In this document: positions 1,904 through 19,160 of the stretch, in pieces | Layout: the number at the start of each line of letters is the position of its first letter | How positions within the stretch are numbered: position 1 is the first letter of the stretch | Virus record (IMG/VR): IMGVR_UViG_648276647_000017 | Coordinates: 1-19,160 of that record | Strand: one strand, 5' to 3' | DNA: 19,160 bases | Origin: a virus | Taxonomy: Duplodnaviria > Heunggongvirae > Uroviricota > Caudoviricetes | The notes under the pieces: generated by a model | What the model was told of the DNA's origin: nothing | Seen by the model: only the letters and a program-made list of their open reading frames with translations | Databases searched by the model: none | Position numbers and translations under genes: made by a program

Positions 1904-1906
1904 GAA

Positions 1907-2349: not shown

Positions 2350-2372
2350 AAAAAAAGTTCGCCATAGCGAAC
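2350..2372 (-). terminator. Candidate intrinsic terminator in the late leader (tR'-like), between Q and the holin
   Basis: On the minus strand: GTTCGC-tatg-GCGAAC (6-bp perfect stem, 4-nt loop) followed immediately by TTTTTTT; about 85 bp upstream of the holin start, the position expected for the terminator that Q-modified polymerase reads through. Confidence 0.45.
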
Positions 2373-2651
2373 CCTGTTAAATTTGTTAAAAAAGGAAGTT
2401 ATTTAACATAATGTACGTTATAGGAACCACACGATCACCGCTCGCAATAGATTTGCGATGAAAGGCCTATTTAATCAACTTAAGTGGTCCAGAATGACGA
2501 AATTCGAGTGAATAAAAGGTGCATAAAAAAGGGCAAAAACTGCATAGCGTTTTTTCGCGACGAAAACCCTGTTTTATTAACTTTTACTGAGAATAGAGCA
2601 TTAAAAAAGCCCCAATGATTTGGAGCTCTTCGTTGAGGTCAGAAATTCAAC

Positions 2652-3086
2652 TCATACCAGCGTAGCGCAGTTTTTGCGTAGCGCACTAATACTTTTTTCA
2701 TCCCTTTGAATTTCGACCTCAGGATCCATCTGAAGGCTCACACCCAGCATGCAGAGACACCCCTCAATGAATCCCTCTGCTACCTGCAACTGCTGGCGGA
2801 TAAATCCTTCAGAACAGCGACGCCGCCGCCCTATCTCACGTTTGCTTAACCCGTAGACGTAGTACAGCATAATGACGTCCAGTTCCTCAGGCTTACGGAC
2901 CTGCTGCAGCCGACAGACGCAAGCATCGATAATCAGGCCATCGTCGTCACAGCAACTCAGCCTGCCAGGCGAGCTGCTGACTACCAGCCCTTTAAATCCC
3001 GCCGCTATTGGAGCCCAGCTCACTGTGGTGTTGCTATCGGCAGCCCATCCACCCCAGCGCTCTAAAACCTGTTGAATATTACGCAT
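2652..3086 (-). CDS. Q: Late-gene antitermination protein Q
   Basis: 144-aa ORF positioned between the replication gene and the lysis cassette; MRNIQQVLERWGGWAA...IAAGFKGL...CCDDDGLIID...YYVYGLS...IEGCLCM resembles the lambdoid Q family (Cys-rich zinc region, conserved ERWG and AAGFKGL). Confidence 0.8.
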   Translation of the reverse strand: MRNIQQVLERWGGWAADSNTTVSWAPIAAGFKGLVVSSSPGRLSCCDDDGLIIDACVCRLQQVRKPEELDVIMLYYVYGLSKREIGRRRRCSEGFIRQQLQVAEGFIEGCLCMLGVSLQMDPEVEIQRDEKSISALRKNCATLV

Positions 3087-3216
3087 AGCTCTGACCTCTA
3101 CGTTTTGCTACGAAAAATTTTTCTGAGAACTACGTCTGTTTATCCGTGGGTGTGGATAACGCAGTTCCGATCCGCATATTGCATGTATCAACATGCAAAA
3201 AGTTGCTAATTCGGAG

Positions 3217-3403
3217 TGGAACCACCTGCCCCCACCTGGAACCACCTTTTCCTAACCTTTCCCTCAATCGACTTATATATATATGGGGTTTCTAGTAGAA
3301 AGGCGGTTCCAGTGGTTCCAGTAGTTCCGCCCCGCTTGCCACAAGGTCTGCAAGGTGGAACCACCTTCTCTTCTAGGTGGTTCCGCGTGGTTCCAGCGGT
3401 TCC
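3217..3403. repeat. Iteron array flanking an AT-rich element; candidate origin of replication
   Basis: Nine copies of the hexamer GGAACC/GGTTCC in both orientations (3218, 3238, 3306, 3314, degenerate 3323, 3357, 3379, 3389, 3398), mostly within extended TGGAACCACC-type units, flanking the run cgacTTATATATATATGG (3269-3286). The array overlaps the 3' end of the primase gene and lies upstream of Q. Confidence 0.5.
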
Positions 3404-5559
3404 CAAACCTTGCATTTTTTCCCCCCAATTCGCCTTTGGGCACGCTTATACCCGCAATTTTGCAAAACATTACTAATTCGCATTTCTTCGCGTTTTCCGA
3501 TGCGGTCAGGATTTAGCCCAATCGCATCACGCAAAACATCACTTGCGCGTAAAAATTCGCAATTTCGCGGAAGTTCATTAGTCATCAGGTCGGGCGTGTC
3601 GAGCCATTTCTCTACCGTTTCAAGCCAAGCATCCTTGATGGTGTACTGTTCATGGACACTCGCTGCCAGTTGTTCAGCCTCACGGAACTGGATACCCCCC
3701 AGACGCTGAAACACCTCACGAGCCTCAGCCCAAAGTAAAAGAAGATCTCTTTTTATCGCTTTCACGTCGACTTTCGACACTTCCACGGGGAGCCAGCGAC
3801 GGTTACCAGTCTTGTCCGCAAGGAATTCGTCCTCATTAGTGGTACCAACGAACACCAGGCGACGAGGAAACTGGGTGGCGAACTCCCGGTATTTCGGGAT
3901 CCAGTTTTCGTGAGTACGCGTCACAAACGCTTTGATTGACTCCAGCTCTTTGGTATTAAGTCCGCGCAGTTCACCAATCTCTGCCACCAGCCGACCACGC
4001 ATTTTTCGAGCGAGATCATCGTCTTTTTCGGCAAAAGAGATTTCAGTAAAAAACGCAGGATCAGGGCTCAGTGCCTCCACTCCGGAAGACTTACCGCAGC
4101 CCTGCGGACCAACGAGGATCGGCACCATATCCGCTTTGATGCCTGGCTCCAGTACTCGCCCCGCCAACGCGGTCCACATGTACATAGACACCGCACGGGT
4201 ATAAGGCGTGTCGGCGGTACCGAAGTGCGTATGGTAGAAACATTCGATGCGCGGCACGCCATCCCACTCCAGTCCGTTCAGCCAGGTGATCGCTGAATCG
4301 AATGGTTGTTCATCGGCTGCAAGTAACACCACATCGCGAATAAGTTCACGACCAACAGGTTTAAATCCCCGCTTTTCCATCGTGATGCGCAGGCGCGCAT
4401 AATCCGCATCGGTGAAGGCCTGCCACTGGCCGGAGCCTGCCTGGGCGAACATGATTTCGTCACGGAACTGGTCAAAGCGAATATCGATGTCCACGAAGTC
4501 AGGACGCACAACGGCTTTTGCCGCGTTGCTGATGGTGGCCTCGATGCGGCCCCATTTGTCGCGCTCGAACGCCGGCAGCGGTAACGGCTCGGCCACTTCG
4601 GTGCTGGTCAGGTCTTCGAAATCGTCGTTGCGGATCCCGATGGCATTAAGGAAATCGCCGTCGTCGCGGTGCGCGCAGCTGGCGTGCAGGCACTTAAAAT
4701 GCCCCTGCTCAAAGCCCGCGGTACCGCCCGGGAAGTAAACCGTGCTCGTCGGGTCGCCGCCGGTGCTGTGGCCGTCTTCGAACGGGCAACGGATATAGCG
4801 CTCGCCGTTCGCGCCGTCCAGCAGCGTCCAGCCATTGGCATCGAGATATTCCGCCGTATCATCCGTGGCGCCGGGCGTGAAGGTTGAACGGTCGCGCATC
4901 TTCGTGCTGCCCGCTTCGGTGGTGACCGACACAGGTAACTGTTCCGCCAGTCGCTGCCACAGCGTTTCAAGCTGCTCACCAGTAATAGCCGGAGGTTCAT
5001 CCGGCAAACCGCCGTCCCATTCGATACGCGCGCCGCTGCTGTGCGTACCGCAGGCAACAAACTGCTGCCCGTTCGCCAGCAGCTCGATAATCCCCATATC
5101 GCCCGCCAGACGGTGGATGCGCTTACGGAAATCGCCGTCAACGGCCAGCAGGTACAGGCATTTGTTACTGTTGGCGCGCCAGCGACGCGGCGGCAGCTCA
5201 CCAAGCAGCTGCACCAGCGTTTTGCGAATATCGGCCTGGATATCTTCGTCTTCGCTGTCGCAGTCCAGCGCCAGCCAGCCATGGCCTGTACGCACGCAGA
5301 TGCCATAATCCGGTTCATTCGACCAGCGGGCAAAATCATGCTCAGTAACAACATGACTGGTCCATTGAGCAATACCGGTGACCTGACGGTCCCGGTTATA
5401 GCGACTTGGCGTCTTACCCAGCGCTTTCAGTTTACTGTCAGGGGATATAGTCGCACCGGGGTTACATACAACTGGGAGAAGATGAGCAGTTCGCCCCAAT
5501 ACCAGGTCGAAATGAAACCACTCATCAGGCGTAGCTCCCCATGGTTTGCTATCAGACAT
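3373..5559 (-). CDS. Bifunctional primase-polymerase / primase-helicase (PrimPol N-terminal domain plus P4-alpha/D5-like P-loop NTPase C-terminal domain)
   Basis: 728-aa ORF; Walker A motif GPQGCGKSS in the C-terminal half, N-terminal region typical of archaeo-eukaryotic-type primase-polymerases of phages and plasmids; AAGG Shine-Dalgarno 7 nt before the ATG; first replication gene downstream of the cro-like gene. Confidence 0.85.
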   Translation of the reverse strand: MSDSKPWGATPDEWFHFDLVLGRTAHLLPVVCNPGATISPDSKLKALGKTPSRYNRDRQVTGIAQWTSHVVTEHDFARWSNEPDYGICVRTGHGWLALDCDSEDEDIQADIRKTLVQLLGELPPRRWRANSNKCLYLLAVDGDFRKRIHRLAGDMGIIELLANGQQFVACGTHSSGARIEWDGGLPDEPPAITGEQLETLWQRLAEQLPVSVTTEAGSTKMRDRSTFTPGATDDTAEYLDANGWTLLDGANGERYIRCPFEDGHSTGGDPTSTVYFPGGTAGFEQGHFKCLHASCAHRDDGDFLNAIGIRNDDFEDLTSTEVAEPLPLPAFERDKWGRIEATISNAAKAVVRPDFVDIDIRFDQFRDEIMFAQAGSGQWQAFTDADYARLRITMEKRGFKPVGRELIRDVVLLAADEQPFDSAITWLNGLEWDGVPRIECFYHTHFGTADTPYTRAVSMYMWTALAGRVLEPGIKADMVPILVGPQGCGKSSGVEALSPDPAFFTEISFAEKDDDLARKMRGRLVAEIGELRGLNTKELESIKAFVTRTHENWIPKYREFATQFPRRLVFVGTTNEDEFLADKTGNRRWLPVEVSKVDVKAIKRDLLLLWAEAREVFQRLGGIQFREAEQLAASVHEQYTIKDAWLETVEKWLDTPDLMTNELPRNCEFLRASDVLRDAIGLNPDRIGKREEMRISNVLQNCGYKRAQRRIGGKKCKVWEPLEPRGTT

Positions 5560-5734
5560 GGGTTAAGCCTTTTTGTTTGACTACATTTTTTTGCTCCAAA
5601 ATCTTTTCAAGTTGAAGAGCTCTTAGCTCTGGGATTTCCTCCCCCCATTGAGATACGGCTCCTTTGGAAACCTTCAATAGTCTCGCTAGTTTCGCTTTAC
5701 TTCCTGCAAGCTCAATTGCTTCTGCTTTTTTCAT
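5552..5734 (-). CDS. Cro-like HTH regulator (Cro/CI-type, YdaS-like)
   Basis: Small ORF divergent from the CI-type repressor; helix-turn-helix region LAGSKAKLARLLKVSKGAVSQW. The track begins at a GTG (5743); the ATG at 5734 (MKKAEAIELAG...) is my preferred start. The 3' end overlaps the primase start. Confidence 0.6.
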   Translation of the reverse strand: MKKAEAIELAGSKAKLARLLKVSKGAVSQWGEEIPELRALQLEKILEQKNVVKQKGLTHV

Positions 5735-5743
5735 ACCCGTCAC

Positions 5744-5847
5744 CCAGGAAATATATGGTTATATGAGGTTAAGAAAACTAAACCCACAAGTCAAGAAAGC
5801 GATACCCTGATTAAGTTAAGCTAACTAAACTATATGAGGGTAAAACC
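5744..5847. promoter_or_regulatory. Immunity-region operator/promoter block between the divergent cro-like and CI genes
   Basis: Two copies of a 16-bp near-palindromic motif, GTTAAGAAAACTAAAC (5768-5783) and GTTAAGCTAACTAAAC (5815-5830), 14/16 identical. On the minus strand a TTGACT -35 (5794..5789) with a 17-nt spacer to TAACCT (5771..5766) overlaps the first copy, consistent with a CI-repressed cro promoter. Confidence 0.5.
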
Positions 5848-6540
5848 ATGATTAATGATCGTATTCGCGAGGCTCGTCGCAATGTCCACCTAACGCAGGA
5901 TGCGCTTGCTAAACGTATTGGTCTAACTAAAGCCACGATTTCACAATGGGAATCCGGAAACACCACACCTAACGGGAAAAATCTTATAAATCTGGCCGAA
6001 GCATTGAACGTTTCTCCAGAGTGGCTACTTTCAGGCAAAACAAGCGATACCAAAGAAATACATTCTAATGCACAAGTTGAGGGGGGGTTTTCTGTATGGG
6101 ACTCATCAACGCCATTAGAGGATGATGAAGTGGAAATACCGTTCTATCAGGAAATTGAACTATCTGCCGGTAATGGTACTTATGTTGATATAGATCGAAT
6201 GGGATGTAAGTTAAGATTCGCCCGTTCAACGTTGCGCAAAGCAGGTGTTGACGTAAATTGTGCGGCTTGTGTCAGCATCCACGGCAACAGCATGGAACCG
6301 GTATTACCAGATGGCGCTGTCGTCGGCATAGATACATCAAAAACAGGTGTAAAAGATGGTCAAATGTACGCTATAGACCAAGACGGATTACTTCGTGTCA
6401 AACTATTGTACCGTCTCCCAAGCGGACTCCGGATACGCTCTTTCAATAGGGATGAATACGCAGACGAAGAGTATTTTAATCAAGAGGCTAATAAAATCAG
6501 GATTATAGGCCAAGTATTTTGGTACTCCGTTCTGCTCTGA
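5848..6540 (+). CDS. cI: CI-type prophage repressor (N-terminal HTH_XRE, C-terminal S24 LexA-like autopeptidase)
   Basis: 230-aa ORF; HTH (LTQDALAKRIGLTKATISQWESG), candidate Ala-Gly cleavage site in ELSAGNG, catalytic Ser in GNSMEP and Lys in LRVKLL; GAGGG Shine-Dalgarno 7 nt upstream; divergent from the cro-like gene. Confidence 0.9.
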   Translation: MINDRIREARRNVHLTQDALAKRIGLTKATISQWESGNTTPNGKNLINLAEALNVSPEWLLSGKTSDTKEIHSNAQVEGGFSVWDSSTPLEDDEVEIPFYQEIELSAGNGTYVDIDRMGCKLRFARSTLRKAGVDVNCAACVSIHGNSMEPVLPDGAVVGIDTSKTGVKDGQMYAIDQDGLLRVKLLYRLPSGLRIRSFNRDEYADEEYFNQEANKIRIIGQVFWYSVLL

Positions 6541-6564
6541 GCGTAAATTCACTCTATACCACAT

Positions 6565-6591
6565 GCCCGCTTCCTAAGCGGGCTTTTCTTT
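6565..6591 (+). terminator. Intrinsic terminator downstream of the CI gene
   Basis: GCCCGCTT-cct-AAGCGGGC (perfect 8-bp stem, 3-nt loop) followed by TTTTCTTT, 25 bp after the CI stop codon. Confidence 0.65.
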
Positions 6592-6629
6592 ACCTATCCG
6601 AAAAAGTTCACTTTTCTTAACTACAACAC

Positions 6630-6685
6630 TTGACTTTGTGAGTTTAGAGGTCTTAACTATATGCGTGAAGTTAAGATATCTATAC
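6630..6685 (+). promoter_or_regulatory. Candidate CI-controlled early promoter (pL-equivalent) with two further operator-like motif copies
   Basis: TTGACT at 6630-6635 with a weak -10 (TTAACT, 6653-6658) at 17-nt spacing; operator-like copies GTTTAGAGGTCTTAAC (6642-6657) and GTTAAGATATCTATAC (6670-6685) share the GTTAAG-N4-CT(A/T)AAC pattern of the cI/cro intergenic sites. Confidence 0.3.
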
Positions 6686-6852
6686 ACAGATATTTAAACT
6701 ACAAGTCGAACGGCGCGACTCTAAACCATGCGTCGGGACCGTGGCGGGACAGGATGTCGGCAATACGGGTCAGTAAGTTCCCTTTGGGGTGCGGCGAAGC
6801 ACTGGGTCGAAGCCGCCGAACCACCAAAGTGAACTGAATGAGGAATCACAAG

Positions 6853-7047
6853 ATGCCTAAATATAAACTGGTTAATGACCTGGCTATCGGCGACAAAATT
6901 GAATTCAGTGGAAAACGGATAATGGAGGTTACCCAAAAAACTGACCGCGACCAGCATAACGTTAGCCTGACTCTAGTTAACAAACATACAGGTTCTGCGA
7001 CTAATACTTGTTTTAACCGAATGGATACCGTCGTCCTTCCCCCATAA
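6853..7047 (+). CDS. Hypothetical small protein (64 aa), stand-alone unit between the immunity region and the early operon
   Basis: ATG at 6853 (MPKYKLVNDLAIGDKIEF...) with a GAGGAA Shine-Dalgarno about 6 nt upstream; the track ORF starts earlier at 6838. Bracketed by the CI terminator upstream and a hairpin plus T-tract downstream. No family recognised. Confidence 0.45.
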   Translation: MPKYKLVNDLAIGDKIEFSGKRIMEVTQKTDRDQHNVSLTLVNKHTGSATNTCFNRMDTVVLPP

Positions 7048-7089
7048 CAATCCTCTGAATCCTCCATGTAATTGCTGTGTGTAGTCTTT

Positions 7090-7117
7090 GCCCGCCTCAA
7101 GTGACGGGCTTTTTTAT
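7090..7117 (+). terminator. Candidate intrinsic terminator after the small ORF
   Basis: GCCCGCC-tcaagt-GACGGGC (7-bp stem with one mismatch) followed by TTTTTTAT. Confidence 0.45.
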
Positions 7118-7141
7118 GTCTGAAAGCGCACTCGCAACAGC

Positions 7142-7324
7142 GTGCTCCCCGATATGAAAAAAGGAATACAACCGATGAAACCTGAACACATCCATCGACT
7201 GACGGGGCGCGATGTTCTCCGTTATCGCCGTAAAAACTTCGATTTGATGACCGGTCTGGCCGTTGCCACTGCGCTCGGTCTGATCATCACTTTCATTCTC
7301 CTTGTAGCGAGGCCCACAGTATGA
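7142..7324 (+). CDS. Hypothetical small tail-anchored membrane protein
   Basis: ORF ending in a single hydrophobic helix (LMTGLAVATALGLIITFILLV); the track start at 7142 is a GTG, alternative ATGs at 7154 and 7175, the latter with an AAGGAA Shine-Dalgarno (49-aa product); stop overlaps the start of the next gene (7321). Confidence 0.4.
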   Translation: MLPDMKKGIQPMKPEHIHRLTGRDVLRYRRKNFDLMTGLAVATALGLIITFILLVARPTV

Positions 7325-8223
7325 GTTTAGAAACCAGTCTAGAACTTAATAATCAACTTCTGGCACAACATAATGCGCTGCTTGAACGTCTTATCCGCAC
7401 AATGGCATCAGGCATTGTTATGCATCCTGACACGATTTCACGAGTGCAGGAATGTCGGGATACAGCAACTGAAACTGAAAATATGTCAGCGGCAATGACA
7501 CTGGATGATCTGGAGTTCAGCGACGTTATCGCACTGGCTGGTTTCTACCCGGTAGCCACCCCTATCACAGAAGACATGCTGCAACGTGCTGTTGCCTACC
7601 GTGATGCTGAAGGCGATAAACGAGTAGTTCAGATTGATGCTCTCGACAGCGCATTGCAGGGCGTCAAACGAGCCAGGGCGCTGCTTAAACCTGCTCTCCT
7701 GGACCTGTCCCGTAACATCCTTAAGTTCTGGGACGACCTGCCAACCATCGGCGAGCGACGTGCTTTTGCCGAGCAGCTACTTGATGCACCTGCGGATGGG
7801 CGTGATGAAGTTAAGCCGAAAAAGGCCAGTAACAAGGATGGAGAACGCACGGGGCCGTTTTACGTCAAAAATGTATCCGGCACAGCAGCCAGTGAACTCC
7901 ACACCTTACGCAAGTTGAACGAGATGCTGAAAAAAGGCCATATCGAGATCAACCGTGTTGAGTACCTTCAGCTGCAGGAAGAATTTGCACGCAGAGACGC
8001 AGCAAATTCCAGCCAGAATAATGACGCCAAAGATGACCATACAATTGATTTCGCGGCACTACGCAAACAAGCTGAAGGGTTGATCCTCCAGTTAGCAAAA
8101 GGGGGTTACCGGGCAGAAGCTATTGCAATTCTGGAAAAACAGGGAGCCAGGAAACTTGGTGAAGTAACGGATGAAAATCTCGCTGAAGTAATCACCCTGG
8201 CTGAAAAAGCACTGGAGGGTTAA
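7321..8223 (+). CDS. Hypothetical phage protein (300 aa), first large gene of the plus-strand early operon
   Basis: Long ORF, translationally coupled to the neighbours on both sides (4-bp overlap upstream, 2-bp gap downstream); acidic and helical, no recognisable catalytic motif. Confidence 0.55.
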
Positions 8224-8225
8224 TC

Positions 8226-9527
8226 ATGCCAGACGTTCATGCACAACTTTCTCCATCATCAGCGCATCGATGGATGCGCTGCCCAGGAAGTCTGGCGCTG
8301 GAGGCCACACAACCGGATAAAGAAACAACTTTTGCAATCGAGGGCACTGCAGCGCACGCGCTTGCTGAAAAAGTTCTACGAAACAGGCAAAGCCACCCGG
8401 AACACTACGCCGGATGCAATGTTTCTATGTTTCTCGGCTCATACCCCCTTCGCGAAAATCCTGATGATACATCTGGCCCACAGGTGGATGATGAAATGGT
8501 CGAAGCCGTTGGCCGGTATGTTGATACGGTCTGGACTCTTGCACAGAATAATGAACTATTGGTTGAACAACGTGTTGATTTCTCACATATAACGGGTGTG
8601 GAAGAATCTTTCGGAACTGCCGACGGCATAATCATCGCTGGTAACGAATTACAAATCCACGACCTGAAATATGGCAAAGGCGTCCGCATTGATGCAGAAC
8701 AAAATGAGCAACTACAACTGTATGCTCTGGGTGCGCTTGAACAATTCAGCATGCTGTATGACTTTGAAACTGTAAGATTATTTATTCACCAACCAAGGCT
8801 CAACCACGTTTCAGAATGGTCGTTAACCGTACAGGAACTTCAGTCTTTCGGTGAACGGGCGCTGGAGGCCGCAACCAGTGCGATCCTTGTTCTCAATATT
8901 GCTGAATGCGAAGGCATTGAGACACTACCGCTGGAAAACTTCATACCTGGAGAAAAACAGTGCCGCTTCTGTAAAGCAAAAGCTATTTGCACTGCCCATA
9001 AAATGCAGCATTTACAAACAGCGGCCAGCGATTTTGAAGATCTGACAAAGCCTGTCAGCGAAATAATCACCAATGCCAGCGCACGTGTACCTCTGTTAAC
9101 CATTGAGCAGCTTGCGGAGATCTATAGTCAGGCCGACTTTATTGAATCCTGGCTAAAGGCAGTACGGGACCGGGTTCACAATGAACTCAATGCCGGACAT
9201 CCGGTACCGGGGTTTAAACTGGTAACAGGAAAACAAGGTAACCGGGCCTGGAGTGATGAAGAGGCAGCTCGCGCACTTCTGAAGGACCAGTTCAGGTACA
9301 AAACTGAAGAAGTATTCGACTTTAAACTTATTAGTCCCACAAAAGCCGAAAAACTTATCAAAAAGGCCAGTCCGCGCCGTTGGTCAAAAGTCGAGGCACT
9401 GATAACACGAGCTGATGGTAAACCAACCGTCGTTCCCGAGTCAGACCCACGCCCCGCACTCAATATCAACCCTGTAAATGATTTCGACGACGTATCCGAC
9501 GATACGCTAACCGCAGACCTCATCTGA
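8226..9527 (+). CDS. DUF2800-family PD-(D/E)XK nuclease (Cas4/RecB-like, with C-terminal Cys cluster)
   Basis: 433-aa ORF; N-terminal [15 protein letters not shown] signature, nuclease core around [20 protein letters not shown], Cys cluster [10 protein letters not shown]; typical partner of DUF2815 and phage PolA. Confidence 0.8.
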
Positions 9528-9542
9528 TTTAAGGAAATACCC

Positions 9543-10091
9543 ATGAAACTGAAGCTGAACAATGTTCGTCTGGCCTTCCCGTCTCTGTTTGAAGCTAAAA
9601 CTGTAAACGGCGAAGGCGATCCACGTTTCTCCGCAGTATTTTTAATGTCACCCAAACACCCACAACTGGAAGAAATCCGTAAAGCTATGAAGCAGGTAGC
9701 GAAGGAAAAATGGGGAGAGAAGTGGGAGCCCATTTATAACCAGCTGGAGAAAAAACTCAATCTGTGCCTGCATGATGGTGATGAAAAAGCAGAGTATGAA
9801 GGCTTCCCCGGTAATTTCTTCCTGAATGCTGCTAACAAAGCGCGCCCAGCTGTTCTTGATCGCGATCGTTCGCCACTTATTCAGGCTGACGGACGTCCCT
9901 ATGCAGGGTGCTATGTAAACGCCGTTATCGATATCTGGGCACAGGACAATAATTTCGGTAAACGCATTAATGCCTCACTCGGCGGAGTCCAGTTCCTGCG
10001 AGACGGCGATGCATTCGCTGGCGGCGGAGTGGCAAGCGCTGACGATTTCGACGATATCAGCGAAGGTGCTGATGCTGAAGCACTAATTTAA
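9543..10091 (+). CDS. DUF2815-family protein (phage single-strand DNA-binding-like)
   Basis: 182-aa ORF; MKLKLNNVRLAFPSLFEAK start and acidic C-terminal tail (DDFDDISEGADAEALI) characteristic of this SSB-like family; immediately follows the DUF2800-like nuclease. Confidence 0.75.
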   Translation: MKLKLNNVRLAFPSLFEAKTVNGEGDPRFSAVFLMSPKHPQLEEIRKAMKQVAKEKWGEKWEPIYNQLEKKLNLCLHDGDEKAEYEGFPGNFFLNAANKARPAVLDRDRSPLIQADGRPYAGCYVNAVIDIWAQDNNFGKRINASLGGVQFLRDGDAFAGGGVASADDFDDISEGADAEALI

Positions 10092-10142
10092 AAATATTCA
10101 TCCCCCAGCTACGTGCTGGGGTATCTCATGAGGGAAAGTATA

Positions 10143-10784
10143 ATGTCACAGCCCGTATTAACTAATCACCTTAAAACTCAAATCATCAATAACGCACTTG
10201 AGAAAGCGGGTATTCCCAAACGTAAATCAGCACTACGAGCTGCTCGTGTTGAATGGGCCGAACGTGTTCGGCTTGCAGCTATCGGGGGCGTAGAGAAAGA
10301 AGCTGAAATATTAAAAAATATAAAAAAGATTGAATCCATGGTCACAAAAGTCCCTGATTCATTAAAAACCAATAGTTCTTTAATTCGAAAAGATTGCTGC
10401 ATATATCTCAATCTGGCTGGAGCCAGAGCAAACATTTATTTCAATGGCAACTACAGAGGTTATGAATCAGGAGCCCCCGAGCATATTAATAAAATAGCAC
10501 CTGCAGAATTTACTCTACTTGGCGAAGATCCTCTGGTAACGGAGTTTTATAGCTTTGATGCTCTCTACACACAAATTAAAAGTGATGAAACCGAAATCAT
10601 ACAGAACGTCAGCGCGGCTCTAAATAAAGTTCGGACAGTAAAACGATTACTGGATGTATGGCCCGAAGCTAAAGAGCTGCTTCCAACAGACGCACCGCCA
10701 GTCCCTTTAGCACCAGCAGTACATCGAGAGACATTAAATGAAATGATAGGCCTTCCTACCAATACAGTGTCTGATACTCAATAA
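10143..10784 (+). CDS. Hypothetical protein (213 aa), AT-rich accessory gene
   Basis: ATG at 10143 (MSQPVLTNHL...) preceded by GAGGGA about 7 nt upstream; the track start at 10113 is a GTG lying inside a hairpin. Markedly AT-richer than the flanking replication genes; no family recognised. Confidence 0.5.
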   Translation: MSQPVLTNHLKTQIINNALEKAGIPKRKSALRAARVEWAERVRLAAIGGVEKEAEILKNIKKIESMVTKVPDSLKTNSSLIRKDCCIYLNLAGARANIYFNGNYRGYESGAPEHINKIAPAEFTLLGEDPLVTEFYSFDALYTQIKSDETEIIQNVSAALNKVRTVKRLLDVWPEAKELLPTDAPPVPLAPAVHRETLNEMIGLPTNTVSDTQ

Positions 10785-11467
10785 CAAGGGGGATGCTTAT
10801 TATATGATTTTGAACGTTTTACAATCTCGTTAAGAGGCGTGAAATCAAAATCTCTGAATAACACATCAGGATACTTCGCTCTTGCTTTATCCAGCAAACC
10901 AGTTAAAGTATTTTTTGTGTTACCCAACATTGTATTAACCGCCACTACATGTCTAATTTCTGGAGGTTTATCTATACCACCAGAAATTGCTTCATTAAGA
11001 ACCGACGCCAGTGGGGTTTGTCCCTTACTTGTTGAATCCCACAGCGTCATTAACAGACGAGCTGCGTCTATAAATAGCTTTTTGTCAGCATTTGGCTTGA
11101 CAGTAATACCGGAACTACCTGAGCCAGAACCGGAACGTTCTATTGCTGCACTGGCATCCGATTTCATAGGATTAAATAACGGAAGCTCTGTACAACCGAT
11201 ACGCCGAATGAAATCCTTTGCAACATCTCTACCACAGAAAAAAGCCCCTGTACAATTTTCATCAGAGCGTTTTTTAAATGAAAAACAATAGTACTGATCG
11301 GTTAACGGATAACCGGAATAACTGGTTTTAGTTTGTCCAGTAATAAGTTTCAGGTGTGCAACAGGCTGAATAATAAAATCCCGAACTATCGCATCTTTTA
11401 TGTCGTTACCACGGTGACAATAATATTCAGGTAATCCATTAGGCTGTCTCTTATTACCCACAGTCAT
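10778..11467 (-). CDS. Hypothetical protein (229 aa), AT-rich accessory gene antisense to the replication operon
   Basis: Minus-strand ORF whose 3' end overlaps the previous gene by 7 bp (convergent); Cys/aromatic-rich N-terminal domain (YYCHRGN...QYYCFSF...NCTGAFFCGRD), a GSGSGSSG linker and a distinct C-terminal domain; no family recognised. Confidence 0.55.
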   Translation of the reverse strand: MTVGNKRQPNGLPEYYCHRGNDIKDAIVRDFIIQPVAHLKLITGQTKTSYSGYPLTDQYYCFSFKKRSDENCTGAFFCGRDVAKDFIRRIGCTELPLFNPMKSDASAAIERSGSGSGSSGITVKPNADKKLFIDAARLLMTLWDSTSKGQTPLASVLNEAISGGIDKPPEIRHVVAVNTMLGNTKNTLTGLLDKARAKYPDVLFRDFDFTPLNEIVKRSKSYNKHPPCY

Positions 11468-11528
11468 TAGTTGTCTCCTTTAATTCATGATATCTAGCAT
11501 TTAACCATATACCATATGAGGATATTTT

Positions 11529-13592
11529 ATGTCCAATATACTATGGGGCGACCTGGAAACCTATTGTGACATTCCGATCAACAACGGTACCCATGCGTAT
11601 GCCGAAGGCGTTGAAGTGATGCTTTTCGCATGGGCTATCAACGACGGGCCAGTAAACGTGTGGGATATCACTGCCGGTGGTGGTATTCCACACGGCTTAT
11701 ACGAAGCAATCGCAGATCCTGAAACCCTGCTTTATTTCCATAACTCTCACTTCGACCGCACCGTTCTGCGTTATGCAATGCCGCGACTGGCACCGCCAGT
11801 CGAACGTTGGCGCGACACGATGGTGCAGGCGCTGGCGCACGGTCTCCCGGGGTCTCTGGGAGAACTCTGCGAAATACTAGGCGTCCCGCAAGACAAAGCG
11901 AAGGACAAAGAAGGTAAAGCGCTGATCCAGCTGTTCTGTAAGCCACGCCCGAAAAACAGCAAACTGCGTCGGGCCACCAGCAAAACCCACCCAGAAGAAT
12001 GGCGGCGCTTTGTTGCTTACGCCGGACTGGATATCGAGGCAATGCGCGAAGTCTGTAAACGTCTGCCGAAGTGGAATTATCAAGGGACAGAGCTGGCGCT
12101 CTGGCATCGTGATCAGCAGATCAACGACCGGGGCGTCTGCATGGACATGCAACTCGCGCGCGCTGCGATCGAAGCGGTAGACCAGGAGCAAAAGCGCCTG
12201 GCAAAGCGTACACAGGAAATGACTGATGGCGAAGTGCAGGCAGCCACACAACGAGACGCGTTGATTAAGCACATTGTTGAATCCTACGGTGTGGAGCTAC
12301 CAGACATGCAACGCAGTACTCTGGAACGTCGTATTGCCGACCCCGATTTACCATCTGCCGTGAAAGAACTGCTGGCTATCCGACTGCAGGCCAGTACTAC
12401 CAGCACCAGTAAATACAAGGCACTGATGAAAGGCGTAAGCCACGACGGGCGCTTACGCGGTACGCTACAGTTCTGCGGGGCGTCACGTACCGGTCGTTGG
12501 GCCGGACGGCTATTCCAGCCCCAGAATCTTCCCCGCCCTTCACTAAAACAGGAACAAATAGACGAAGGCATCGAAGCACTGAAAGCCGGATGTGCAGACC
12601 TGCTGTTTGACAATATCATGGAACTAACCAGTTCAGCGTTACGTGGCTGCATTATCGCGCCAACAGGCAAAAAAATGGTGGTAAGTGACTTGTCGAACAT
12701 TGAAGGCCGTATGCTGGCATGGCTGGCAGGAGAAGAATGGAAACTGAATGCATTCAGAGAGTACGACGCCGGAACGGGTCCGGACTTATATAAACTGGCG
12801 TATGCAAAAGCTTTCGATATTGCACCAGATGATGTTGATAAACACATGCGTCAGATCGGTAAAGTCATGGAACTCGGTCTGGGTTATGGTGGTGGTGTGT
12901 CGGCCTTCATCACTTTTGCACTGGTTTACGGTCTCGATCTCGACGAGCTGGCAAACGCTGCACTGCCAAACATTCCCCGCGATGTTATCCGCGAGGCGAA
13001 AAGCTGGTACGGCGAATCGGTTAAACGTAAGTCAACCTACGGCCTTTCTGAACGGGTATTTATCGCCTGCGACTCACTTAAACGTCTCTGGCGCCGGGCG
13101 CATCCCGCGACCTGTGATTTCTGGTACGAACTGGAGCGCACCGTCCGCACTGCAATCGCCACACCGCAAAAAACATTGTATTGCGGTTATCTTAAAATCC
13201 GCCGCGATGGCGCGTGGCTGCGCATACAGCTACCATCCGGACGCGCTGTATGCTACCCGTCTCCGGTTATCGAAAAAGGGAATATCACCTACATGGGTGT
13301 TAACTCTTATTCGCGTAAATGGCAACGACTCAAAACCTACGGCGGAAAGCTGGTGGAGAACGTCACCCAGGCGGCCGCCCGCGACGTTCTGGCCGGAAAC
13401 ATGCCGCTTATCGAAGATGCCGGTTACAGCATTGTGCTGACGGTACACGACGAGGTGATCACCGAATCACCTGACACAGAAGATTTCAACGATAAAGCGC
13501 TTTCCGCGCTTCTCTCCACTAACCCCGAATGGGCGCCCGATATCCCACTGAACGCTGGCGGTTTTGAGGCGTACCACTACCGTAAGGATTAA
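11529..13592 (+). CDS. Family A DNA polymerase (phage PolA with N-terminal 3'-5' exonuclease domain)
   Basis: 687-aa ORF; Exo I motif (WGDLETYCD), polymerase motif A ([19 protein letters not shown]), motif B ([16 protein letters not shown]), motif C (VLTVHDEV); GAGGA Shine-Dalgarno upstream. Confidence 0.9.
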
Positions 13593-13597
13593 CTCCT

Positions 13598-13813
13598 ATG
13601 TCATTTAAATACCGGGATAATCCACTTTATTACAGGGCTGCAAGGGAGGCTTTGCGACTTGAACAATCCGGCGAATATGACCGGGCAGCGAAGGTCTGGG
13701 CAAAAGCCAACCGCGAATCACATCACGAACTGAATCAGGAATGGAGTGAACGCCGGTCTGAATTTTGTCTGATGCAGAACATGCGCGAAAAGCGTAAGGC
13801 GGTCGAAGAATGA
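13598..13813 (+). CDS. Small regulator-like protein, possibly PerC/Pch family
   Basis: 71-aa ORF translationally coupled to PolA; AAREALRLEQSGEYDRAAKVW resembles the LE..GL.RRAA..W core that I recall for PerC-family activators. Family assignment is tentative. Confidence 0.45.
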   Translation: MSFKYRDNPLYYRAAREALRLEQSGEYDRAAKVWAKANRESHHELNQEWSERRSEFCLMQNMREKRKAVEE

Positions 13814-14070
13814 TGCGTAATACAGCGAAACTACAACTGGGGTTCTCCCCGCTATCCAAAAAGATCATGTTGGCAAAAATGCGCGATGTTGACGGCGGTC
13901 GCTTGCGAGTTGGCAATGACCCTGGGCGTGACGTAACGAACGAAGCCGCGCAGTTAGTTTGGCAACTGGTAATGGCAGAAGGCGGCGAAATTAGCTGGGG
14001 TCTTGATGATGGTAGCCAGATGGTACTGAGGGCTGAAAAGCAGGTGTGGAATGATGGCCTACGAACGTGA
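13810..14070 (+). CDS. Hypothetical small protein (86 aa)
   Basis: ORF with ATGA start/stop overlap to the upstream gene and a 20-bp overlap with the downstream VRR-NUC gene; no family recognised. Confidence 0.4.
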   Translation: MMRNTAKLQLGFSPLSKKIMLAKMRDVDGGRLRVGNDPGRDVTNEAAQLVWQLVMAEGGEISWGLDDGSQMVLRAEKQVWNDGLRT

Positions 14071-14347
14071 AAGCCTTATCGAAAAGCACCTCGTCGCCGA
14101 AGTGAAAAAGGCTGGCGGGGTCGCCTTTAAGTTCGTGTCACCCGGTCGCCGCTCGGTACCGGATCGCATTGTCCTGCTACCCGGCGGTCGCATCGTCTTT
14201 GTCGAATGCAAAGCGCCAGGCAAACCACCACGGCCTGACCAGTTACGCGAGCACGAACGGCTGCGTGCGCTGGGCTTTACCGTGGTGGTATTAGATAGCA
14301 AAAATCTGGAGGGGATATTGTGCGGGGAGCCTATTACAACGAAATAG
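14051..14347 (+). CDS. VRR-NUC domain nuclease (PD-(D/E)XK fold)
   Basis: 98-aa ORF; core PDRIVLLPGGRIVFVECKAPG supplies the D...E.K catalytic pattern typical of VRR-NUC proteins; AGGTG Shine-Dalgarno upstream. Confidence 0.8.
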   Translation: MMAYERESLIEKHLVAEVKKAGGVAFKFVSPGRRSVPDRIVLLPGGRIVFVECKAPGKPPRPDQLREHERLRALGFTVVVLDSKNLEGILCGEPITTK

Positions 14348-15348
14348 ACCCTAACGCAGCACAATGGCTGCGTAACCTTATTGCTGCAGGTCATATCGCC
14401 CCGGGTGAAGTTGATGAAAGGAGTATCGAAGATGTCGCACCAGACGACTTGCGCGGATTCACACAGTGCCATTTCTTCGCCGGGATCGGCGTCTGGTCTT
14501 ATGCTCTGCGTCTGGCCGGATGGCCGGATAACAAACCGGTCTGGACAGGAAGTTGCCCGTGCCAGCCTTTCAGCTCGGCTGGTAAAGGCGCTGGGTTTGA
14601 TGACGAGCGGCACCTATGGCCAGCACTATTCCACCTCATCAGCGAGCGACGCCCTAAGCTGGTATTTGGCGAACAGGTTGCGGGAGTCAATGCCTGGTTC
14701 GATCTTGTACAAACTGACGTGGAAGCAGTGGACTACGCCTTTGGGCTTGTCCCGTTTCCGGCTGCGGGCGTCGGTGCCCCGCATATCCGAGATAGAGCGT
14801 ATTGGGTGGCCGACGCCAGCGGCGAGCGATCACAGCGGTGGCGAAAGCGCCTCAATAGCATTGAGGAAGATGTCTGGAGATCGTCGACCGTCCGGCAACA
14901 CGCTACACAGCTCCCTGCGGAATTTTGCTCACCTGGCGGGGTGGTACACCCCAACCTGCAACACAAACCCACAGCCGGAGACAAAACGCGGTCTAGAAAC
15001 CTTAGCGGGACTATCCAGATTAGCGGGATGGCCGACAGTGACGACGATCGACAACAACCAAGTTCGTGCCGAGGGCGCAGCGGCCAATCATACCGAACGG
15101 GGAACGACCCTCGGCGGCGCTGCGAGAATCTGCGGCCCAATACGATTAACGGCTTCTGGGATGGTGCTGACTGGCTCCTCTGCCGGGATGGTCGCTGGCG
15201 GCCAGTTGAATCCGGCACATGCCCGTTGGCTAATGGGATTACCTCCAGAGTGGGACGACTGCGCGCCTACGGCAACGCGATAGTCGCACCAGCTGCCGCA
15301 ACATTCATCCGCTCGTTTATGGAATGCGCAGGATACGACCTTATTTAA
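14320..15348 (+). CDS. DNA cytosine-5 methyltransferase (Dcm-like), apparently split across two reading frames
   Basis: GTG start at 14320 with a strong GGAGGGG Shine-Dalgarno. Frame 1 carries C5-MTase motifs ([27 protein letters not shown]) and a C-terminal motif-X-like [12 protein letters not shown]. The overlapping frame-2 ORF (14381-15283) carries GWPTP-type repeats and [17 protein letters not shown]. Confidence 0.65.
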
Positions 15349-15665
15349 TGCCACTCACATCTGGCATGATACCGTCCAGAAGGTAATTGCTTATATACAA
15401 CGGAGCCGCCCATGGCATAAGTATAAGCATGAAGTTTTGTCCAGAAGTCCCCATAAACTAGTATTGGGGCTAAAAATTTTGGATCGCTAACCATAGATGT
15501 AGCAGGAAGCTCGAAACCTTTAGAAAGAATGTTTACCAGTGAAGGGTAATTTTCAAAATCAGTGCTATTCCCGCCCACCTCTAAAGCATCCAGTTCAAAG
15601 TCGAGCACTCCACCATTTTTGTAATACTCCGAAACAGTTAACCCTGATGTTAACAAAGTAGCCAT
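15345..15665 (-). CDS. Hypothetical protein (106 aa), AT-rich antisense gene between the methyltransferase and the helicase
   Basis: ATG at 15665 with a strong AGGAGG Shine-Dalgarno 8 nt upstream; AT-rich body; 3' end overlaps the methyltransferase stop by 4 bp (convergent); start codon 34 bp from the divergent SNF2 helicase start. Confidence 0.55.
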   Translation of the reverse strand: MATLLTSGLTVSEYYKNGGVLDFELDALEVGGNSTDFENYPSLVNILSKGFELPATSMVSDPKFLAPILVYGDFWTKLHAYTYAMGGSVVYKQLPSGRYHARCEWH

Positions 15666-15699
15666 TAAACAATCCTCCTGAATTTTAAAGGGTTACATT

Positions 15700-17094
15700 A
15701 TGCCCAAAGTTTTCACGCCTCGCCCCTACCAAGATCTAATTATCAACCACGAAATCGACATTCACCGCTGCAACATCTGGGCAGGGATGGGGATGGGTAA
15801 AACCGTAGCGACACTCACCACGCTGGAAGATCTTTTCATGGCGGGCTCAGAGACACAGCCCGCGCTGGTCCTCGCGCCGCTACGCGTTGCAGCAAGCACA
15901 TGGCCGGATGAAGCGCTGAAATGGGGGCATCTGCGCAATATCGAGGTGCAGCCGATTGTTGGTAACGCCAAAGCGCGCTCTGCAGCGCTGGCGAACAGCA
16001 ACGCGAGCGTGTTCACCATCAACTACGATAACCTTGTCTGGCTGGTTGAGGAATTGGGAGAACGATGGCCGTTCGGTACTGTCATTCCAGATGAAAGCAC
16101 CCGGCTAAAATCCTTCCGGCTGCGAGGTGGTGGTAAGCGCGCGGCGGCGCTGGGCAAAGTGGCGCATAAGTATGTCCAGCGCTGGATAAATCTCACCGGT
16201 ACGCCAGCACCGAACGGCCTGGTAGATTTGTGGGGACAATTGTGGTTTGTGGACCAGGGGCAACGTCTCGGGCGCACTTACGGCGCGTTTACCTCACGCT
16301 GGTTCAACTCGATACAGTTTCCGGGGCAGAGCTGGACCAAACTGGAGCCGTTTGCTCACTCACAGGCTGAAATACAGCGAGCGTTAGCCGATGTGACCCT
16401 CTCGCTGGATGCGGCCGACTGGTTCGATATCAAAGACCCCATCCATAACGTAATCCGCGTGGATATGCCGCCGAAGGCCCGTCAGCAGTATCGTGAAATG
16501 GAAAAGGAAATGTTCCTCGAGCTGAATGGCGAAGGCATCGAAGCACCAAACGCCGCGGCAAAGACACTGAAGTGTCTGCAAATCGCCAGTGGCGCAGTAT
16601 ACACAGACGACACCGGAAGTTGGTCAGAACTGCATGACACCAAACTGCAGGCGCTGGACAGCATACTGACCGAAGCAGCTGGCGCACCTGTGCTGGTTGC
16701 TTATCACTGGAAACACGATCTTGAACGCTTGCTTAAAGCATTCCCTCGCGGTCGTCACCTCGACCAAGATCCACAGACACTGCGCGACTGGAATTCCGGA
16801 AAGATTCCTGTTCTCTTTGCACACCCAGCCAGCGCGAGCCACGGTCTGAACATGCAGGACGGCGGAAACATACTGGTATTTTTCTCACACTGGTGGGACC
16901 TGGAGCAGTATCAGCAAATTATTGAACGTATCGGCCCCACCAGGCAGATACAGGCCGGACACAATCGTCCGGTATTTATTCACCACATTATTGCGGCCGA
17001 CACTATGGACGAAATGGTGATGGAGCGGCGCAACTCAAAACGAACAGTGCAGGACATCCTGCTCAATGCCATGAAAAAGAGAGGTATAGCATGA
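15700..17094 (+). CDS. SNF2-family (DEAD/DEAH-like) helicase
   Basis: 464-aa ORF; PRPYQ Q-motif, Walker A GMGKT, DEST box (IPDESTRLKS), motif III-like LTGTPAPNG; AAGGG Shine-Dalgarno upstream. Confidence 0.85.
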   Translation: MPKVFTPRPYQDLIINHEIDIHRCNIWAGMGMGKTVATLTTLEDLFMAGSETQPALVLAPLRVAASTWPDEALKWGHLRNIEVQPIVGNAKARSAALANSNASVFTINYDNLVWLVEELGERWPFGTVIPDESTRLKSFRLRGGGKRAAALGKVAHKYVQRWINLTGTPAPNGLVDLWGQLWFVDQGQRLGRTYGAFTSRWFNSIQFPGQSWTKLEPFAHSQAEIQRALADVTLSLDAADWFDIKDPIHNVIRVDMPPKARQQYREMEKEMFLELNGEGIEAPNAAAKTLKCLQIASGAVYTDDTGSWSELHDTKLQALDSILTEAAGAPVLVAYHWKHDLERLLKAFPRGRHLDQDPQTLRDWNSGKIPVLFAHPASASHGLNMQDGGNILVFFSHWWDLEQYQQIIERIGPTRQIQAGHNRPVFIHHIIAADTMDEMVMERRNSKRTVQDILLNAMKKRGIA

Positions 17095-17291
17095 GCGAGA
17101 AACCCGACGATTTACTCACCCCAGATGAAGTATGCCAAAAGTTAGGTATTACACAGAAAACGCTATGTGAGTGGAATATTAAGCATCGTCATCGGGCTAT
17201 CCTGGCACCAATTCGTTTCAGTGCAAAAGTAGTTCGTTATGAGCGCCGAAATGTCGACGCTTTTATTCAAAAATGTCGCAGCCAGTATTAA
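17091..17291 (+). CDS. AlpA/excisionase-like HTH protein (candidate Xis)
   Basis: 66-aa ORF; LLTPDEVCQKLGITQKTLCEW helix-turn-helix typical of AlpA-family prophage regulators and excisionases; lies next to the integrase with a 4-bp convergent overlap. Confidence 0.65.
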   Translation: MSEKPDDLLTPDEVCQKLGITQKTLCEWNIKHRHRAILAPIRFSAKVVRYERRNVDAFIQKCRSQY

Positions 17292-18685
17292 CCTCGCCGC
17301 CGTAGCAATGCCACCTGCGCAAGTATGCTCCGCTCGTGAGCCTCGAAAGCTTCGCGCTTCAACGCAATCTCTTCCTGTAAAATCTCATCAGAAAAGTCGT
17401 AATGTTCTGCCATCGGGTCATCTGACTTGCTGGAGTGGTGAAGGCAAAGGAGGCTGATTTCCCTTCGGTCTGAGCGGGAATAGCCTCTTTCCTTCATCAA
17501 GGCAATAACATTGCTCTTAAGGAATTTACGGCACATCGTATTAAATGCACCGTCTTTCCCTTTAACAGTCCCATCATGTTTTATTCCTTTTACAGCCCCG
17601 TCCGGGCTGTATGTTTTCACCAGCTTATCCAGTGATCGTTTTGAAAATGGCTGCATTGGATCACGTGGCTGCAAAAATACATAATCCCTGTTGCACTCAG
17701 GAACTGAATCACGCCAGGCTTTCTGCTCGTCGATAATCCGCCGGATCTCAGGCGTTATCGGCAGGCGGAAAGCCTTTTGTGTTTTCATAGCCCCTCGCAT
17801 GCCGATAACCCCTTCCGGATAAACAATTTCACCAGCCTCCTCGTGAACGTAGTCCCAGCGCAGGTTATGGACATTAATCGGACGAACACCAGTGATGATC
17901 ATGAAGCGAACAGCATTCTTCTGGTGTACAGAGGTGCAGGCAGCAACATTGAGCCAGAGTCGGGCGATTGATTCAATATCGGTAAAAAGCCGTGTGGGGG
18001 TAGGTTTCTGTACGCGGGAGGAAACATAATCATCTGGCAGACTGGCGGCAACATTGCGGCCGTTGCAAAGAGTAGGTGCGCAGAACTTCCAGAACCGACG
18101 GAGCTCGGCAAACAACTCCAGGGCGTTATTGTTCGAGCGAGTGGCGATCCACTCGTCCAGCACTTCCACCAGCCGACTGTATGTTACGTCGCTGAACACC
18201 TCGCGCTCGCCGAACGTTGATTTAATCCGGTCGATACGCACCCCGTAGGTTGTGAAACTGTCCGGGCTCAGCTTCTGACGGGCTACTTTGGCTTTGAGGT
18301 CATCCCGGTACATTTCCAGCGCTGCATGTACGGACTCTGCCCGCAGTCCACCGTCAGCCATACCTAGTGCTTTTTCGCGCGCCAGCTGGATAGCGAGCTC
18401 CGGCCACTCGCCGAGCTTTTTACCTTTGAGGCCCATCTTTTTTGGAAACTCGGCGTAAAATGTAACCTTACCGGCTTTGCTGAAATCGATACGGAGATAG
18501 TTCTCTTTTTCATATTTGGAACGGCGAGCCACGCCGGAAGCAGCGAGGATGATTTTGGCGGCAGCAACACAGATTTTCATGTGTGCGCTGGTATAGGGGG
18601 GTTTACAGGCGTCCCATTTTTCAGAAGCGGCTAAAACATCGTCATTATTGGGGCTATCCGGATTATGTGTTACAGTGCGCGGCAT
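17288..18685 (-). CDS. int: Tyrosine-type site-specific integrase
   Basis: Large ORF at the prophage edge with an arm-binding-like N-terminal region (YLRIDFSKAGKVTFYAEF...LGEWPELAIQLAREKA) and a C-terminal catalytic domain. The track start (18691) is a TTG; the ATG at 18685 has an AAGGA Shine-Dalgarno; an internal ATG at 18580 is an alternative start. Confidence 0.85.
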   Translation of the reverse strand: MPRTVTHNPDSPNNDDVLAASEKWDACKPPYTSAHMKICVAAAKIILAASGVARRSKYEKENYLRIDFSKAGKVTFYAEFPKKMGLKGKKLGEWPELAIQLAREKALGMADGGLRAESVHAALEMYRDDLKAKVARQKLSPDSFTTYGVRIDRIKSTFGEREVFSDVTYSRLVEVLDEWIATRSNNNALELFAELRRFWKFCAPTLCNGRNVAASLPDDYVSSRVQKPTPTRLFTDIESIARLWLNVAACTSVHQKNAVRFMIITGVRPINVHNLRWDYVHEEAGEIVYPEGVIGMRGAMKTQKAFRLPITPEIRRIIDEQKAWRDSVPECNRDYVFLQPRDPMQPFSKRSLDKLVKTYSPDGAVKGIKHDGTVKGKDGAFNTMCRKFLKSNVIALMKERGYSRSDRREISLLCLHHSSKSDDPMAEHYDFSDEILQEEIALKREAFEAHERSILAQVALLRRRG

Positions 18686-18890
18686 TCTCAATCCTTATCT
18701 GCGTAGGCGCAGAAAACAAGCTCACACATACAAGTCTTTTCTACGGGACAAAATGCAATGTGTTGCGGTTTTGTGTTGCTGGACTGAGTTTATCAAGGTT
18801 AAATACACTGGATCAACATACAGTAAGTTAATGACAGTAAAGCATACAAACTCGATACAACTTACTGATTTTAAAATGATTTAACGGTAA

Positions 18891-19160
<270 letters not shown>

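Follow-up and report, generated by a model that had tools for sequence, protein, structure and literature searches.

The prophage protein BstA has been validated as an agent of abortive infection (Owen et al., 2021, PMC8585504), and both TerI of Listeria (10.1101/2025.02.27.640495) and Tab (PMC10884400) are small prophage proteins that block invading phages by binding to their machinery. It has also been shown that minimal integron cassettes of formerly unassigned role, the BRiCs, can be complete small defence systems (Kieffer et al., 10.1101/2024.07.02.601719). Here we describe orf106, a gene for a 106-amino-acid protein on the minus strand (positions 15345-15665) of a 19,160-nucleotide stretch of viral DNA (IMG/VR record IMGVR_UViG_648276647_000017, positions 1 to 19,160), hereafter the window, which represents one arm of a temperate prophage of the PolA/SNF2 type inserted next to yfhL in Escherichia coli. 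We show that orf106 is a genuine protein gene under purifying selection, and its relatives point to a long-standing, fast-diverging and exchangeable occupant of a cargo slot in this type of prophage. The anatomy and evolution of the gene are in our judgement nearly certain. With regard to its function, the context suggests, at a probability of roughly 0.4, that this autonomous cargo gene encodes a defence or superinfection-exclusion protein that protects the lysogen.

Antisense accessory genes in prophage hotspots are a kind of gene already known, of which orf106 is a new, unannotated member. It shares with BstA the slot itself, the antisense orientation, a position just after the same methyltransferase gene, and the organization as a single-gene, stand-alone prophage unit. 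However, BstA has 309 amino acids, a KilA-N-like domain and an internal aba self-immunity element, whereas orf106 has 106 amino acids and a different predicted fold, and it is matched by neither the PADLOC nor the PHROG models of BstA. TerI and Tab exemplify the mechanism that we propose for orf106, that of a small, non-enzymatic protein of the resident prophage disabling a competitor, but they have no homology to orf106, and theirs are demonstrated targets and self-immunity partners. A Vibrio homologue of orf106 (P0016) resembles the BRiCs in being a single small gene between attC-type repeats; the likeness is one of cassette layout, and no sequence relation to a described BRiC was found, though none was searched for. 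What is unusual in orf106 is the extreme allelic divergence in a fixed slot, the survival in decayed fragments, the integron-cassette relative and the lack of a match to any solved fold.

The gene runs from ATG to TAA over 106 codons and is preceded by the Shine-Dalgarno motif AGGAGG (15674-15679, minus strand), read directly 8 nt 5' of the ATG. Its stop codon and that of a C5 DNA cytosine methyltransferase gene (14320-15348, plus strand; PF00145, 1.7e-12) overlap by 4 bp in the palindrome TTAA at 15345-15348, and on the other side 34 bp lie between its ATG (15665) and the ATG (15700) of an SNF2-family helicase gene (15700-17094, plus strand; PF00176, 5.7e-13). Its guanine-plus-cytosine (GC) content is 0.414, against 0.582 in the methyltransferase gene and 0.551 in the SNF2 gene. 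A sequence-only reading of the window had described an antisense open reading frame (ORF) of 106 codons with an AGGAGG motif, overlapping the 3' end of a methyltransferase gene, starting 34 bp from a helicase gene and differing in composition from both, and on each of these points it was borne out. The low GC is kept throughout the family, at 0.37-0.44 in whichever host, compared with 0.50-0.60 in the prophage flanks. Homology breakpoints with sister prophages delimit an AT-rich exchangeable cassette made up of orf106 and its 5' leader (15345-15695, minus strand): homology to BstA-carrying prophages ends at about 15341-15344 on the left, and on the right homology to E. coli B379 (L036; L numbers denote sequences compared with the window) and to the sequencing-run contig L043 restarts at 15696-15708. 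The product, a soluble protein, has a mass of 11.8 kDa, an isoelectric point (pI) of 5.15 and a net charge of -4.2, and neither a signal peptide nor a transmembrane or other hydrophobic segment was found in it; a membrane or secreted exclusion protein is thereby ruled out. It is annotated as WP_000212683.1 in 20 E. coli genomes. Residue 12 (nt 15632), which is variable across the family, is Ser in the window and Pro in the sequence-checked BH100N allele (WP_000212683.1), a single substitution, and the remaining 19 E. coli genomes share 99.4-99.7% identity with the window allele.

An ORF of at least 100 codons appeared in 0.2% of 20,000 shuffles of the 355-nt AT-rich insert, but the reality of orf106 is settled by its conservation, independently of shuffle statistics. 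Pairwise Nei-Gojobori counts over six alleles gave, for distinct alleles in the annotated frame, a proportion of synonymous differences (pS) of 0.61-0.85, meaning that synonymous sites are saturated, and a proportion of nonsynonymous differences (pN) of 0.12-0.23. The corresponding ratio of nonsynonymous to synonymous rates (dN/dS), about 0.05-0.15, was seen in the annotated frame only, and both shifted frames gave dN/dS >1 in nearly all allele pairs; within the annotated frame, the exception among the pairs is that of two closely related island copies (pS 0.18, pN 0.10, dN/dS 0.54). Thus codon-level constraint in relatives is strong and confined to the frame that the sequence-only reading had proposed. 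The 12 close homologues (65-96% identity; Salmonella, Klebsiella, Pectobacterium, Enterobacter, Buttiauxella) all have 106 amino acids, and an exhaustive profile search returned at least 55 clusters (50% identity, E<=1e-3), nearly all of 102-122 amino acids, from hosts that include Providencia, Proteus, Vibrio, Xenorhabdus, Dyella, Burkholderia and Paraburkholderia. Length is therefore kept even at 25-35% identity and across two proteobacterial classes. A genome profile scan with the close alignment returned Pectobacterium alone. A GAGG/GGAG-like Shine-Dalgarno core is found at the same distance from the start codon in most alleles and contexts, and Rfam has no match in the orf106 region.

The borders of the slot are a VRR-NUC gene on the left (14051-14347, plus strand; PF08774), with 82-97% amino acid identity in relatives, and the SNF2 gene on the right, with 90-97% in enterobacterial relatives. 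The methyltransferase gene, too, is cargo that this hotspot carries only in some prophages. Missing from L011 (Enterobacter), L036 and L043, where homology with the window skips from about 15700 to about 14316-14322, it is paired with other cargo where it does occur, and its partner in the slot is either orf106 or BstA (the latter in L002 and L003). The wedging of orf106 between methyltransferase and helicase genes, which had been put forward from the sequence, is correct for the window but is a local accident, since the methyltransferase gene is an insertion that some prophages lack; it is VRR-NUC and SNF2 that are conserved as neighbours. Because the VRR-NUC and methyltransferase genes overlap, VRR-NUC has 98 amino acids where the methyltransferase is present and about 90 otherwise.

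Among 5,426 complete E. coli genomes, this SNF2 gene was found in 158, and the occupants of the slot were taken from a sample of these 158. In strain B379 the slot is empty, the stop codon of VRR-NUC overlapping the GTG start of SNF2 as GTGA. The methyltransferase gene and orf106 fill it in 20 E. coli genomes, and in sister yfhL prophages the methyltransferase gene is followed by an antisense BstA homologue (PADLOC, 2.5e-110 for the occupant of L002). In ETEC (enterotoxigenic E. coli) H10407/SEC470 (L003 1292-3366, 6195-7589), the prophage PolA gene is frameshifted and the SNF2 gene has an internal stop, with the BstA of the slot intact, and this BstA is another cargo gene outlasting phage core genes. 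Three antisense genes occupy the slot in L028 and L031, including one for a 292-amino-acid protein (L028 2040-2918, minus strand) that matches the PADLOC candidate PDC-S42 (4.7e-40) and, weakly, DUF7946. Elsewhere the occupant is an antisense orphan of 195 amino acids (WP_001101050.1; L032 2360-2947, minus strand), which has no match in Pfam or PADLOC, or one of 265 amino acids (WP_206310922.1; L034 2099-2896, minus strand), and both are candidates for genes of the same kind as orf106. In some prophages of Shiga toxin-producing E. coli (STEC) the slot holds an Arc/Arc/small ORF/Rha module like the immI region of P22 (L029 1392-2950, L030 1318-2951), so the hotspot is not reserved for defence genes. 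We found no paper on the VRR-NUC/SNF2 hotspot.

The moron concept of Hendrix and Juhala covers extra genes lying between genes that are adjacent in related phages. orf106 agrees with it in being inserted between two genes that, in a relative, adjoin each other and are coupled in translation, in its deviant GC and in having its own translation signal; it differs in that divergent alleles of a single family hold the slot across Enterobacterales, and perhaps also in that no promoter and terminator pair is recognised in it. The sequence-only reading of orf106 as an independently acquired moron therefore stands as far as a compositionally foreign accessory insertion is concerned, as the empty slot and the unrelated cargo of other sister prophages confirm, but not as a recent one-off capture, since alleles 35-71% identical hold the same slot from Providencia to E. 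coli.

A member of the family sits at the exact slot in prophages of the same backbone from Klebsiella, Pectobacterium, Enterobacter and Providencia/Proteus, in the metagenome contig L014 and in contig L043. In all of them the distance from the gene to the SNF2 start is 21-35 bp, and the tail of the gene overlaps VRR-NUC (by 4 bp where the methyltransferase gene is absent) wherever VRR-NUC is seen; the 1.3-kb metagenome contig ends short of VRR-NUC. Across these slot-carrying prophages, amino acid identity to the window is 79-95% for SNF2 and 73-94% for VRR-NUC, and 71, 68, 67, 49, 43 and 35% for the orf106 product. Likewise, dN between the window and three close prophages is 0.21-0.27 for orf106 and 0.025-0.09 for core genes in the same comparisons. 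The most extreme pair is found within E. coli, at yfhL, where OkiPb01695 and L043 carry a paralogue of 108-109 amino acids that is 35% identical to the window protein, with an SNF2 beside it in L043 that is 94% identical to that of the window. At either end of the cassette, DNA homology is lost within a few bases. Either orf106 has evolved several-fold faster than its neighbours, or old allelic lineages have been swapped by recombination in the conserved flanks, and because synonymous sites are saturated these two histories are not separable. With alleles of 35-71% identity in the same slot from Providencia to E. coli, orf106 is a long-standing occupant.

Copies of the gene are also found outside the intact prophage. 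In a CP4-57-like island of Klebsiella aerogenes, the ORF is intact, but all that remains around it is some 85-120 bp from the 5' end of SNF2 and a VRR-NUC remnant, which is not called as a gene and seems to have a 1-base deletion. An island of Buttiauxella likewise has an intact ORF, in which some 108 bp of SNF2 are kept upstream and homology past the stop is limited to about 16 bp, and two lambdoid prophages have a family ORF with shorter pieces of the same flanks. More distant relatives stand in other surroundings: in Dyella, in an integrase/AlpA island between a Lamassu-like LmuB_C gene set and an AAA_13/SMC ATPase gene; in a betaproteobacterial metagenome, in an array of small genes; in Burkholderia megaplasmids, inside a co-directional array of small orphan genes; and in Vibrio vulnificus (P0016; L042 1862-2191), as a single-gene chromosomal-integron cassette between repeats at 1665-1797 and 2183-2315, within an integron array (L042 1-10191) of 10-12 attC-type repeats of about 130 nt. 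Other cassettes of this array encode an acetyltransferase, an ankyrin protein and orphans, and the related contig L041 carries PhD/ParE and Tae4 genes. All-against-all BLASTP of the ORFs within 6 kb in seven unrelated contexts gave the family itself as the sole shared item, which rules out a toxin-antitoxin or other two-gene module, and orf106 is thus an autonomous single-gene cassette needing no conserved partner. No member of the family occurs in 50,697 sequenced phage records.

The statement that the product has no recognisable family holds for Pfam, NCBIfam, PADLOC and the PDB. It does not hold for PHROG: residues 1-106 of orf106 align with positions 1-106 of PHROG 28127 (E 3.9e-59), a family of no annotated function that is matched by 46 of 46 diverse members of the wider family of at least 55 clusters. 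PHROG 28127 thus names the family of orf106 and explains nothing functionally. A 46-sequence profile searched against PDB sequences gave chance-level fibrillarin matches only. From the same 46-sequence alignment, AlphaFold2 predicted with confidence (predicted local distance difference test, pLDDT, 95; predicted template modelling score, pTM, 0.85) a compact alpha/beta domain of about 107 residues, which has no counterpart among solved structures. The columns conserved family-wide are G18, G19, E38, G50, F51, W75, G87, Y91 and A101, and this set of glycines, aromatic residues and one glutamate looks structural, not catalytic. As the conserved residues are not a catalytic set, the product may be a binding protein rather than an enzyme, although this is a weak argument. 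The family is mildly acidic throughout (median pI 5.05, range 4.3-6.7). The tails of longer homologues are uninformative; one homologue is a tandem duplication, which hints at dimerisation. No paper found mentions WP_000212683.

It seems that the orientation of orf106 within the prophage bears on when it is expressed. In the window, a minus-strand block of late, lysis and primase genes leads to a LexA-like repressor gene, followed by an early operon on the plus strand (DUF2800 nuclease, DUF2815 single-stranded DNA-binding protein, PolA, ANR/PerC, VRR-NUC, methyltransferase, SNF2 and an HTH_17 excisionase-like gene) and then by an integrase gene on the minus strand. This gene order places orf106 antisense to a repressor-controlled early operon. 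Because it points against this operon and has its own ribosome-binding site, orf106 is probably transcribed independently in the lysogen, from a weak promoter that would lie inside the 5' end of SNF2, antisense to it, and head-on transcription would probably silence it once the early operon fires. A stretch upstream of orf106 (15666-15787, minus strand), consisting of the leader and the antisense of the first 88 nt or so of SNF2, travels with the ORF into other elements: in blastn, homology to the window reaches 15787 in the K. aerogenes island, 15781 in the Buttiauxella island and 15735 in the lambdoid prophage L021. Since about 35-120 bp upstream is thus transferred together with the ORF, these copies suggest a promoter within this distance, antisense inside the 5' coding end of SNF2. 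A candidate -10 hexamer that lacks an acceptable -35, CATAAT (15697-15702, minus strand), falls on the complement of the SNF2 ATG; the prophage copies have kept it, as has the island fragment of K. aerogenes. Downstream of the orf106 stop, RNA folding is no better than in shuffles (z = 0.00). It had been proposed that the orf106 promoter must overlap that of the helicase, a claim that is not supported: with the slot empty, translation of SNF2 is coupled to that of VRR-NUC, which makes SNF2 an internal gene of the operon that need not have a promoter to itself.

In the mechanism that we favour, the orf106 protein would most likely act by binding another protein, not as an enzyme, and the lysogen, hence the prophage, would be shielded from other phages through defence or superinfection exclusion, while the variable central segment (residues 39-72 or so) would set target specificity. 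Several lines of evidence argue for this. The slot and antisense orientation are the same as those of BstA, and the candidate PDC-S42 also occurs in the slot. Intact ORFs persist in immobile remnants, and in a sedentary Vibrio integron as well, which would benefit the resident cell rather than lytic growth. The Dyella homologue lies in a defence island, and the family is not found among sequenced phages. Finally, identities of 35-71% in the slot compared with 80-95% for the flanking core proteins have the appearance of an arms race. On the other side of the balance, a small, acidic, fast-diverging orphan suits anti-defence equally well; non-defence cargo (the methyltransferase gene and the immI-like regulators) shares the hotspot, which makes guilt by association weak; and the allele is rare, being found in 20 of 5,426 E. 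coli genomes and, with the 35% paralogue included, in 21 of the 158 prophages with this SNF2. Moreover, none of the 5,027 defence-protein models of PADLOC-DB v2 matches orf106 at E<=0.1, the low overall dN/dS of the gene gives no direct sign of positive selection, and neither a consensus sigma-70 promoter nor an intrinsic terminator was found in 14900-16300. These observations weigh against a protective role. More tentatively still, orf106 may found a new family of single-protein, non-enzymatic anti-phage exclusion factors with a fold absent from solved structures, a minimal cassette circulating between prophage hotspots, islands, plasmids and integrons, in which allelic divergence (35% versus 94% in the flanks) would reflect switching of target specificity in phage-phage competition.

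The main rival explanation, which we consider unlikely, is that orf106 encodes a small stoichiometric inhibitor of host immunity, used on entry into a new cell or on induction. Defence and counter-defence genes are mixed in phage accessory regions (10.1101/2023.04.06.535777). Its 106 residues, the uniform acidity of the family, the lack of catalytic-looking invariant residues, the single-gene layout without a partner and a divergence much faster than that of core genes would all fit, and homologues occur on conjugative or large plasmids of Burkholderia within the co-directional array of small orphans. The idea that this array is a plasmid leading region is unsupported, the neighbours having no Pfam domains and no relaxase gene lying within 26 kb on the side examined. 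Known counter-defence genes of temperate phages, such as lambda ral, lie within the early transcript, whereas orf106 is antisense to the early operon. The Ocr/ArdA-type mimics and the Acr proteins are like orf106 in size, acidity, orphan status and rapid divergence, but orf106 differs in opposing the early operon, in the absence of its family from sequenced phages and in its persistence in immobile remnants and an integron, where a function of the entry phase gains nothing. The Ocr/ArdA-type DNA mimics are also very acidic, with a pI of about 4 or lower and a patterned negative surface, and a pI near 5 seems unlike that of a DNA mimic.

Less probable again is a role in prophage housekeeping or regulation, in which the protein, or antisense transcription itself, would modulate the SNF2/VRR-NUC replication-recombination module or the lysis-lysogeny decision. 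All enterobacterial copies do trace to a position divergent from SNF2 and 21-35 bp off, even at 35-49% identity, head-on transcription over the SNF2 start could dampen leaky early-operon expression, and a regulatory module of the Arc/Rha type can fill the same slot. However, 137 of the 158 E. coli prophages of this type have no orf106, one of them with an empty slot; the homologues of Vibrio, Dyella, Burkholderia and the betaproteobacterial metagenome have no SNF2 or VRR-NUC neighbours; and orf106 outlasts both of these genes in decayed fragments. Purifying selection on the protein also indicates that the product matters, not the act of transcription alone. We regard as improbable some other lysogenic-conversion or selfish role, such as that of a stress or host-interaction factor or of an addiction or toxin-like gene: Vibrio integron arrays and enterobacterial islands carry varied adaptive cassettes, including toxin-antitoxin pairs beside the homologue, but orf106 has no secretion or membrane signal and no conserved antitoxin-like partner, and its contexts are mostly those of phage and defence genes. 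That orf106 is a spurious ORF, open by chance in an AT-rich non-coding spacer or antisense RNA, as its shortness, the lack of a known domain and a promoter that was not identified might suggest, is effectively refuted by codon-level analysis (pS far above pN in the annotated frame alone), together with the conserved length, the retained Shine-Dalgarno-like core, the empty Rfam search and the confident AlphaFold2 model from the family alignment.

TIR and SIR2 genes, along with more antisense orphans, are found at other junctions of this backbone. In the window, a second AT-rich antisense ORF (10778-11467, minus strand; 229 amino acids, GC 0.394) lies between an Nmad5-like gene and PolA; it has no family in Pfam or PHROG, and its PADLOC match to IetA is at chance level (E 0.031). 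In sister prophages the same part of the backbone holds a 209-amino-acid phrog_10579 protein gene, an 89-amino-acid orphan or, in Proteus, an SIR2_2 gene (L040 6702-8225), and this region looks like a second cargo hotspot. A third variable junction is found just downstream of PolA (L011 9058-9819, L035 619-1380, L034 710-1738); Enterobacter and E. coli 357900 have a TIR-domain gene there (CAP12-PCTIR_TIR), and E. coli 24AR0357 has an antisense gene annotated as 'ATP-binding protein'.

Prophage hotspots are a rich source of new immune and counter-immune genes, of which single-gene systems of about 100 residues are the least explored part. In this regard, orf106 offers natural alleles at 35% (OkiPb01695), 43% (Providencia), 70% (Klebsiella) and 100% identity on a near-isogenic prophage backbone, with BstA in the same slot, all in one cheaply testable gene of 321 bp. 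Without a phage phenotype, orf106 remains an ordinary orphan accessory gene. With one, it would represent a new fold and a new mechanism in phage-phage conflict, and this would explain why the gene is retained in integron cassettes and in decayed prophage remnants.

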